A stretch of 64,000 nucleotides of DNA from Escherichia coli (GTDB lineage Bacteria; Pseudomonadota; Gammaproteobacteria; Enterobacterales; Enterobacteriaceae), in the NCBI RefSeq assembly GCF_030013595.1, contig NZ_CP122768.1; one strand, written 5' to 3'. How positions within the stretch are numbered: position 1 is the first letter of the stretch; every line of letters begins with the position of its first letter. The notes beneath the pieces were generated by a model. The model was not told the DNA's origin, did no database searches, and was given only the letters and a program-made list of their open reading frames with translations. Positions 15,087-16,950 of this stretch are shown piece after piece. The position numbers and the translations under genes were made by a program.

Positions 15087-15155
15087 AGAATCATATGCAG
15101 CAACCAAGTTGCTTAAGCAATGTTTCAATATGAGTTAAAAGCATATTTTATCTCA

Positions 15156-15341
15156 CGATTGCATATTTTTAGTGAAGATTAATTTATCCTCACCAACATC
15201 ATAGTAATTGCGTATTATAGCTTCATTGATAAAGCCCTGTTTTGTATAAAATGCGCGGGCGGCACTAAAATCGATATGGCTGGAGGTCTCTACTAAAAGT
15301 AGTCTTGCGTGATTGGGACAGGTCAAGAAAAAGCAGTTTTT
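15156..15341 (-). pseudogene. Possible GNAT acetyltransferase C-terminal remnant (no start codon)
   Basis: Frame reads ...ARLLLVETSSHIDFSAARAFYTKQGFINEAIIRNYYDVGEDKLIFTKNMQS*, with the GNAT-like AxxFYxKxGF motif; AT-rich, lies in the yddH to H-rpt spacer. Confidence 0.3.
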
Positions 15342-15699
15342 TCAGGGCACAGTTGCGAAAATTGAATACCGTATGGACTAATGTGAGAAAATTCCGAGGT
15401 ATGACTGTTTTGATATAGTGGACAATCAAGCGTCTCGAATTAACAATGAATTTCAGGTGCCAAGCCTTACAATTTGTAGCATGACGGATATAGGACAACA
15501 TTAGGAAATCGGACAGAAAATTCATTATAATAAAATGACAACTTATCTCTTTCTCTCACGTTCTGTGAAATTTCACAAAAGTATAAACTGAGCCAATATG
15601 CCTTTATATATAAAAAATACTCATGTTTATTATTATCGGAAAAAGCCAAGATTTGATTAAGGCCATCAAAAATATCTTTCTCATGATCTATATGTACTC

Positions 15700-16950
15700 T
15701 TGATGATTTTACAATACAGGGAAAGATTACGAAAGCCCGCTCCCAGCAAGGACTGACGCCAGATAGTTTCTGTCCATGGCTGCTTTTCGCATCTTACGTC
15801 TTAACCCTGCCTTGAATACCTTATCATTCGTCAAAATATTAATAGCGATGTGCCGTATCCCTGAAAATAATTCTGCTGCATTTCCTCTTCTTATTTTGCA
15901 GTCGTCTTCATTCATTACCACGTCCAGACGCCAGTGCAGCTTATTCTCCACGTGCCAGTGGTTTCGGATTGCTGTGGCGAACTTCTCTGCGCTTAAATCA
16001 GCAGAACTGATATAATATCTGACCGTCATTTCTCGCTCTTTCTTTTGTTCTGCTATTATTGACCGAAAGGAGACTGCCACGCATAATTTCTTCTGACCTT
16101 TCCATTCAAACGTGAAATCAATAAGTTCATCAGGGACATCGCAAACAATATGAAGACGGATTTCTTCTCTGCCGTGACTCTTTTCACTCATTGCGTAACT
16201 GTCATGCTCTGGATTATTTAATTCTTTCAGTGGGAATTTTTCCTCAAAGGCTTTATTTAGCCGACCCTGATTTCCTTTTACAGCGAATAAATAATCACCT
16301 CCCTGTTTTTGTATCTTCTCTGCAATATCTTTCTGGCAACCCATCGCATCAGTTGTGATGATTTTTCCTTTAATATCCAGCATGTTAAGAAGTTCAGGGA
16401 TAGCTGTAATTTCATTGGGTTTCTCATCCGTCCTGATCTGTCCGATGACCAGACTGTGCATTGTTGAGAACGCACTAATGACATGAATCGCTCCCTTGCG
16501 GCGACTCTTGTCATAAGGATGCCGGAGTGTTTTTCCATCAATTGCGATGACGTCTTTATCAGCTGAAGAATGGCAGTCACGCATCCAGTTAATAAAGCAC
16601 TCGTAAAATTTTGCAGGACTGATACAGGATACAACTCTGGCAATGGTATCGTTAACAGGAATACCATTTTCAAAATCACCATATTGCTTCAAAAAATCGA
16701 GATGTGTTTCCCCAAAATCCTCTATATCTTCCCAGCCTTCTGCACCAGAAATAACGGCATAAATAGTCAACAGTAGAATATCCGACAATTTATATTCCAC
16801 TTTCCAGGCTTGTCTGTAATCGGGGATAATAGAAATATGTTCCATCAATTTTTTAAGTTCCATTTTGTTCTCCTTAATTATGTAAGGAGTATTTGATCAT
16901 GTATACGCAATAAAAAACAGCTTTAGGTAATAAGGAATATATCAATTTTT
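15700..16950 (-). mobile_element. H-rpt (ISAs1-family) element, ends approximate
   Basis: Transposase ORF plus short flanks; inverted-repeat ends not resolved by eye. Confidence 0.5.
15727..16863 (-). CDS. ydcC: H-repeat-associated protein / ISAs1-family transposase (YdcC-like)
   Basis: 378 aa [32 protein letters not shown]... matching the H-rpt ORF family that accompanies rhs elements. Confidence 0.85.

Follow-up and report, generated by a model that had tools for sequence, protein, structure and literature searches.

Probable debris of three genes between yddH and an H-rpt element at the rhsE site of an Escherichia coli genome

What occupies the outer edge of the rhsE-site island in an Escherichia coli genome from which pptA, the K-12 neighbor of yddH, is missing? 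In K-12 the genes at this site run rhsE-ydcD-yncO-yncI-ydcC-pptA-yddH-nhoA; pptA and the stop of yddH share 4 bp, and the E. coli W genome paper (PMC3032704) catalogues the locus (b1455-b1461) among the Rhs sites. An earlier note on the DNA studied here, a stretch of 64,000 nucleotides that we call the window, had placed pptA next to yddH and ydcD/yncI beside rhsE in K-12, in agreement with this gene order, and had reported that pptA and ydcD/yncI were not seen. Searches of the whole 64 kb with tblastn confirm these absences: the best PptA match had an E value of 5.6, with no open reading frame (ORF) of about 77 aa of the 4-oxalocrotonate tautomerase family beside yddH; the best ydcD match had an E value of 0.69; and yncI gave only a 67% cross-match to the single H-rpt copy, a separate copy being absent. 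The window and the K-12 rhsE locus have in common the chromosomal site, the flanking yddH-nhoA-yddE-narVWYZ backbone, and the type of H-rpt at the island edge, but neither pptA nor ydcD nor the second H-rpt (yncI) is present in the window. In the place of pptA, between its H-rpt and yddH, the window has 630 bp of unrelated sequence that we read as gene debris, and on the far side of the H-rpt it differs from K-12 in having a symE-like gene and another Rhs tip.

We conclude that this interval very probably comprises three stacked gene remnants (a vestige of pptA, a stub of a GNAT acetyltransferase gene, and a stub of a gene for a 211-aa protein) plus a former intergenic spacer, and that, in all likelihood, a succession of rearrangements at this island edge has left it as debris without function. 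The features concerned are as follows.

12508-13401, plus strand: yddE
13497-14342, minus strand: nhoA
14517..15086, plus strand: yddH, flavin reductase family, an intact 189-aa ORF, annotated as yddH in the identical record NZ_CM149870.1
15089..15134, minus strand: putative diverged vestige of the pptA 3' end, ~14-15 codons, ORF lost, bounds approximate
15153..15311, minus strand: GNAT remnant, codons 104-155 and stop, from synteny with strain 2012C-4502 and homologue alignment
15311..15312, no strand: junction of a 466-bp deletion relative to 2012C-4502 (L003 5226-5691)
15312..15466, no strand: non-coding spacer, once the intergenic stretch separating the GNAT gene from the 211-aa gene
15467..15716, minus strand: 3' remnant of the 211-aa gene, codons 130-211 and stop, from tblastn (WP_001032567.1 family)
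15717..17007, minus strand: complete H-rpt/ISEc1 element (ISAs1 family), 1291 bp, with terminal inverted repeats CAGGGAAAGATTACG and CGTGATCTTTCCCTG
15727-16863, minus strand: ISAs1/H-rpt transposase ORF, 378 aa, 95.5% identical to K-12 YdcC

The gene order in this part of the window is yddE, nhoA, yddH, the interval, the ISAs1/H-rpt transposase gene, the symE-like gene, a 144-aa ORF, and the Rhs protein tip. On the left side of the interval, yddH is a conserved backbone gene; its alleles share ~95% nucleotide identity up to the stop codon, beyond which two haplotype families part ways. The interval is bounded by that stop (15086) and by the stop of the ydcC-like ISAs1/H-rpt transposase ORF (15727); positions 15717-15726 are 10 bases of the insertion element, and the true spacer is 15087-15716. 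Positions 15087-15726 are 100% identical in two pig E. coli isolates (NZ_CM149870.1 and NZ_CM149862.1). As the earlier note stated, the interval is AT-rich (34.1% G+C, where the window has 46.9% and yddH 51.6%), and it opens the AT-rich tail that follows a GC-rich Rhs core (60-65% G+C), the classic Rhs pattern. The description of the interval as non-coding held for the spacer at 15312..15466 but not for the 250 bp that are the 3' end of the 211-aa gene, nor for the ~45-bp pptA vestige. The spacer itself varies by indels between alleles, and allowing for one of 8 bp it can be aligned with 2012C-4502 and SCU-105; the sole ORF across it (86 aa, 15265-15525) was rejected as spurious, since it straddles the deletion junction. 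Across the interval, an Rfam search (E up to 1) gave no match, a terminator scan found no terminator-like site, and a promoter scan found one weak promoter-like site, fewer than in shuffled sequences and none convincing.

The start-less fragment that had been taken for a GNAT C-terminus is encoded at 15153-15326 on the minus strand, within a mechanically called 57-aa ORF with a TTG start. It aligns with residues 105-154 of an intact 155-aa Salmonella GNAT protein (P0005) at 82% identity over 50 aa (E 8e-28), a similarity that, judged from the alignment, is far above chance. The identification stands on synteny as well: in strain 2012C-4502 the same position holds an annotated GNAT family N-acetyltransferase (WP_001563339.1), collinear with the fragment and 96% identical to it (E 3e-32). 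At Pfam gathering scores neither the 57-aa ORF nor its 51-aa homologous core matches any family; Pfam alone giving nothing, its identity was established from the full-length allele in synteny and from homologues elsewhere. To reconstruct the parent, the 2012C-4502 allele was read through its premature TAA (K127*) and joined to the C-terminus from the window, yielding 155 aa. This protein scores above the gathering thresholds of PF13508 (38.8 versus 27 bits), PF00583 (31.1 versus 20.7), and PF13673, and its full-length homologues (154-157 aa, 70-84% identity) occur in Salmonella, Enterobacter, Phytobacter, Citrobacter, Kluyvera, Serratia, and others.

In its length, its Pfam profiles, and its acetyl-CoA loop QRQGVG (residues 84-89), the parent resembles the small RimI-like N-acetyltransferases of the GNAT family, although it falls far under the RimI equivalog cut-off (39 versus 86.4 bits). 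The closest solved structures are PDB 2R7H, a putative D-alanine N-acetyltransferase, and RimI. The window, by contrast, keeps only codons 104-155: homology to the GNAT C-terminal region is present, but the start codon, the N-terminal 103 codons, the motif A loop (Q/R-x-x-G-x-G/A), and any recognizable domain are gone. A toxin-antitoxin pair with a GNAT toxin (TacT/AtaT type) was also considered and rejected, as the nearest solved relatives, 2R7H and RimI, are not toxins. The genes upstream of intact homologues encode a 288-aa membrane-like protein in Logan contig L011 and unannotated 138-170-aa proteins in Salmonella, with no antitoxin family recorded among these neighbors. The Salmonella homologue is carried by an integrase/AlpA/CbtA island, in keeping with a gene of mobile origin. 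A GNAT-like stretch, matching 46% of the query at 74% identity, is joined to the N-terminal domain of ISAs1 transposases (PF13808) in a separate predicted protein of 187 aa (P0080, with 17 member sequences, from ENA assemblies), which is probably a read-through ORF over a junction of GNAT and H-rpt fragment like that of B2 strains.

The missing part of the GNAT gene is accounted for by the 466-bp deletion, which, by alignment to 2012C-4502 on both sides of the gap, took codons 1-103 and 157 bp upstream. No microhomology is obvious at the junction, and the identical junction sequence is present in SCU-105. Junction-centered BLAST reached a coverage of at most 74%, owing to the 8-bp indel, which lies 29 bp past the junction. 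All four combinations of presence and absence of the deletion and of the H-rpt junction exist (LF82, 2012C-4502, SCU-105, and the window), implying recombination between haplotypes or recurrence.

Between the GNAT remnant and yddH, some 45 bp are probably what is left of pptA. This sequence is only about 70% identical to the K-12 gene, and its local alignment score against the pptA 3' end was matched by 0.06% of 5000 shuffles; the minus strand reads THIETLLKQLGCCI followed by a stop, where PptA has PQMEALIKKPGYSMNA and a stop. An intermediate form is found in L011, from a non-E. coli enterobacterium with ~82% identity to E. coli in this region, where an intact 155-aa GNAT gene (P0002) converges on yddH and a clearer pptA stub, ending in LKKPGYSL and a stop, lies between the two. 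The shuffle test and this one contig are our grounds for calling the segment a putative pptA remnant. A fragment can come only from a whole gene, so the pptA arrangement would be ancestral and the GNAT-bearing DNA would have replaced most of pptA. Apart from this vestige the interval does not align to K-12, and GNAT homologues are many; the suggestion that this edge of the island has a rearrangement history different from that of K-12 is borne out.

On the other side of the spacer, positions 15470-15715 of the minus strand match residues 130-211 of WP_001032567.1 with 100% identity over 82 aa (tblastn, E 1.6e-51). The homology ends at 15716, exactly at the end of the H-rpt, with 250 bp of the gene kept; in SCU-105 the gene is whole. 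Sequence of the 211-aa gene was found in 237 complete E. coli genomes, in 194 of them intact and in 43 truncated. The family is confined to Escherichia, Shigella, and Pseudocitrobacter, and neither of the two neighboring proteins, of 211 and 186 aa, showed a meaningful Pfam or NCBIfam family. An AlphaFold2 model is all-helical with mediocre confidence (pLDDT 66.6), and a Foldseek search of this model against the PDB gave no match better than E 0.9. The name "aminopeptidase" on some records of the protein is supported by neither profile nor structure searches, and we do not adopt it. In E. albertii (L012/L013, 6001-6624) a 60%-identical homologue stands between cusS and nfrB, in a row of small ORFs that carry no annotation; the E. 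coli W genome paper (PMC3032704) gives that position as another Rhs site. The 211-aa family may be Rhs-island cargo.

The insertion element that abuts this stub is a typical ISAs1 member of ~1.3 kb, with inverted repeats and one 378-aa transposase ORF, labeled ISAs1 family transposase by PGAP in the identical record. Its 15-bp inverted repeats differ by one mismatch, CAGGGAAAGATTACG starting at 15717 and its partner ending at 17007, and its left end was fixed by comparison with K-12, strain R2, and SCU-105, in which the same end has different flanks. There is no target-site duplication around the element, the flanks TTTTACAATA and GTTAATCATG being unrelated, and beyond it lie the symE-like gene and the Rhs tip, not the missing 5' part of the 211-aa gene. 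From the lack of a target duplication and the absence of the missing gene half across the element, we infer an IS-associated rearrangement and not a simple insertion. Strain R2, with a 63-bp pptA stub, is similar in that the H-rpt end lies directly on a truncated yddH-side gene without target duplication; in the window, however, the truncated gene is that of the 211-aa hypothetical protein, not pptA, and the Rhs island is kept.

Just past the H-rpt, the symE-like toxin gene (ORF 16967-17344, plus strand) is overlapped in antisense by a match to the Rfam family isrA, an Hfq-binding sRNA, at 17086-17214 on the minus strand (112.6 bits against a gathering score of 51, E 1.4e-25); a sub-threshold Ssr1 match overlaps the isrA match. 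On sequence grounds the two resemble a type I toxin-antisense pair of the SymE/SymR kind within the Rhs tail. The Rhs ORF ends at 17872, and its C-terminal tip is followed directly downstream by an AT-rich ORF of 144 aa (17400-17834, minus strand), hypothetical in RefSeq (WP_000703398.1), whose position suggests that it is the cognate immunity gene of the tip.

How common such arrangements are was surveyed in 5,426 complete E. coli genomes, with allele classes assigned from BLAST coverage. At the yddH flank, pptA is present over at least 80% of its length in 4,084 genomes (about 75%), and in about 569, strain R2 among them, only its last 63 bp remain, directly on H-rpt. The GNAT-type flank occurs in 660 genomes, with the gene body kept in about 430 and the 466-bp deletion in about 236; the exact H-rpt junction of the window occurs in 40. 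Of the ~660 sequences that match the GNAT-type flank, two come from records with a plasmid classification, such as NZ_CP141085.1 (385 kb). The edge of the H-rpt truncates different genes in different lineages. In strain R2 (L010, NZ_CP107188.1, 3987-4064) the whole Rhs island is gone between ansP and the IS, and in ET201 (L014, NZ_CP100994.1, 2902-4057) a yncG fragment and then ansP follow straight after the GNAT piece, an IS1-mediated deletion of the whole island.

Read from their sequences, all inspected E. coli GNAT alleles appear to be inactivated, each by a different lesion, with intact copies in other enterobacteria. The B2 strains examined (LF82 and ATCC 25922) carry W72*, a 1-bp frameshift near codon 98, and G89R, and PGAP calls merely a 71-aa N-terminal piece of the gene; the 2012C-4502 allele has K127*; and in ET201 an IS1 cuts the gene to an 80-aa C-terminal piece. 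Different lesions in each allele are compatible with neutral decay of imported cargo. Selection against the gene in E. coli is less probable; that a costly or conditionally toxic acetyltransferase from Rhs/T6SS cargo was selected against, with the 211-aa orphan family as an unrecognized Rhs/T6SS-associated immunity or accessory protein, is a reading to which we give little credence.

Other accounts of the interval must be weighed against decay. The 57-aa ORF at 15153-15326 could be a functional mini-protein drawn from the GNAT C-terminus and kept as useful: its frame is open, and about 236 genomes have the stub, with amino-acid identities of 96-100%. That conservation, however, is what recent common origin would produce, and the ORF owes its TTG start to the deletion junction; neither a Shine-Dalgarno-like sequence ahead of this start nor a promoter-like site on the minus strand was found. 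Of the 155 codons 103 are lost, among them those of the acetyl-CoA loop, no Pfam domain is recognized, and the same gene has been broken independently in other lineages, all of which makes a retained mini-protein extremely unlikely. Hardest of all to credit is that the interval came in with the H-rpt as passenger DNA. It does abut the element directly and is AT-rich, as the element is, but the inverted repeats at 15717 and 17007 set the ends of an IS of canonical length, 1291 bp, and in SCU-105-like genomes the same sequence occurs without the IS and the 211-aa gene continues intact, by which this account is already refuted.

The direction of the exchange at yddH could also be reversed, with GNAT ancestral and pptA inserted later in the K-12-like majority. 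An intact GNAT gene does stand beside yddH in the diverged (about 82% identity) non-E. coli contig, and a GNAT gene stands there in B2 strains too. In GNAT-type haplotypes, including L011, yddH and the GNAT stop are nevertheless separated by a pptA 3' end that is truncated, the Salmonella GNAT homologue is integrase-island cargo and hence mobile DNA, and pptA is present in about 75% of genomes; we regard an ancestral GNAT as very unlikely.

Replacement of pptA followed by stepwise decay is the history that we favor. To judge from the vestige, an ancestral yddH would have converged on pptA, as in K-12, until AT-rich foreign DNA carrying the gene for the 155-aa RimI-like GNAT protein replaced pptA except for its last ~45 bp. 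A 466-bp deletion, shown by the alignment, removed the GNAT promoter region with codons 1-103 and left a start-less C-terminal stub. The 211-aa gene has lost its first 129 codons where the complete 1291-bp H-rpt/ISEc1 abuts it, presumably through IS-associated deletion or recombination. A working product from any part of the interval is unlikely, as far as sequence can tell; there is likely none.

All component kinds are known: a GNAT pseudogene fragment, an ISEc1/H-rpt element, and Rhs-site variability. The window-type allele is already present, unannotated, in hundreds of public genomes. The GNAT stub and the truncated 211-aa gene, both unannotated in RefSeq, are best recorded as pseudogene fragments and not as "non-coding spacer" or small ORFs. 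The pptA-yddH pair of K-12 is listed among convergent overlapping-transcript ("excludon") pairs (PMC12288877; L002 9053-9852), an entry that was all that a literature search for pptA and yddH together returned; in GNAT-type strains this overlap does not exist. The strain studied here is without the PptA tautomerase and without the ydcD/yncI of K-12, and about a quarter of complete E. coli genomes have no intact pptA at this site. Beyond annotation hygiene the significance is small: H-rpt/ISEc1, IS1, and small deletions have repeatedly reshaped the edge of the rhsE-site island that faces yddH, ordinary decay for an E. coli locus known as a hot spot of rearrangement.
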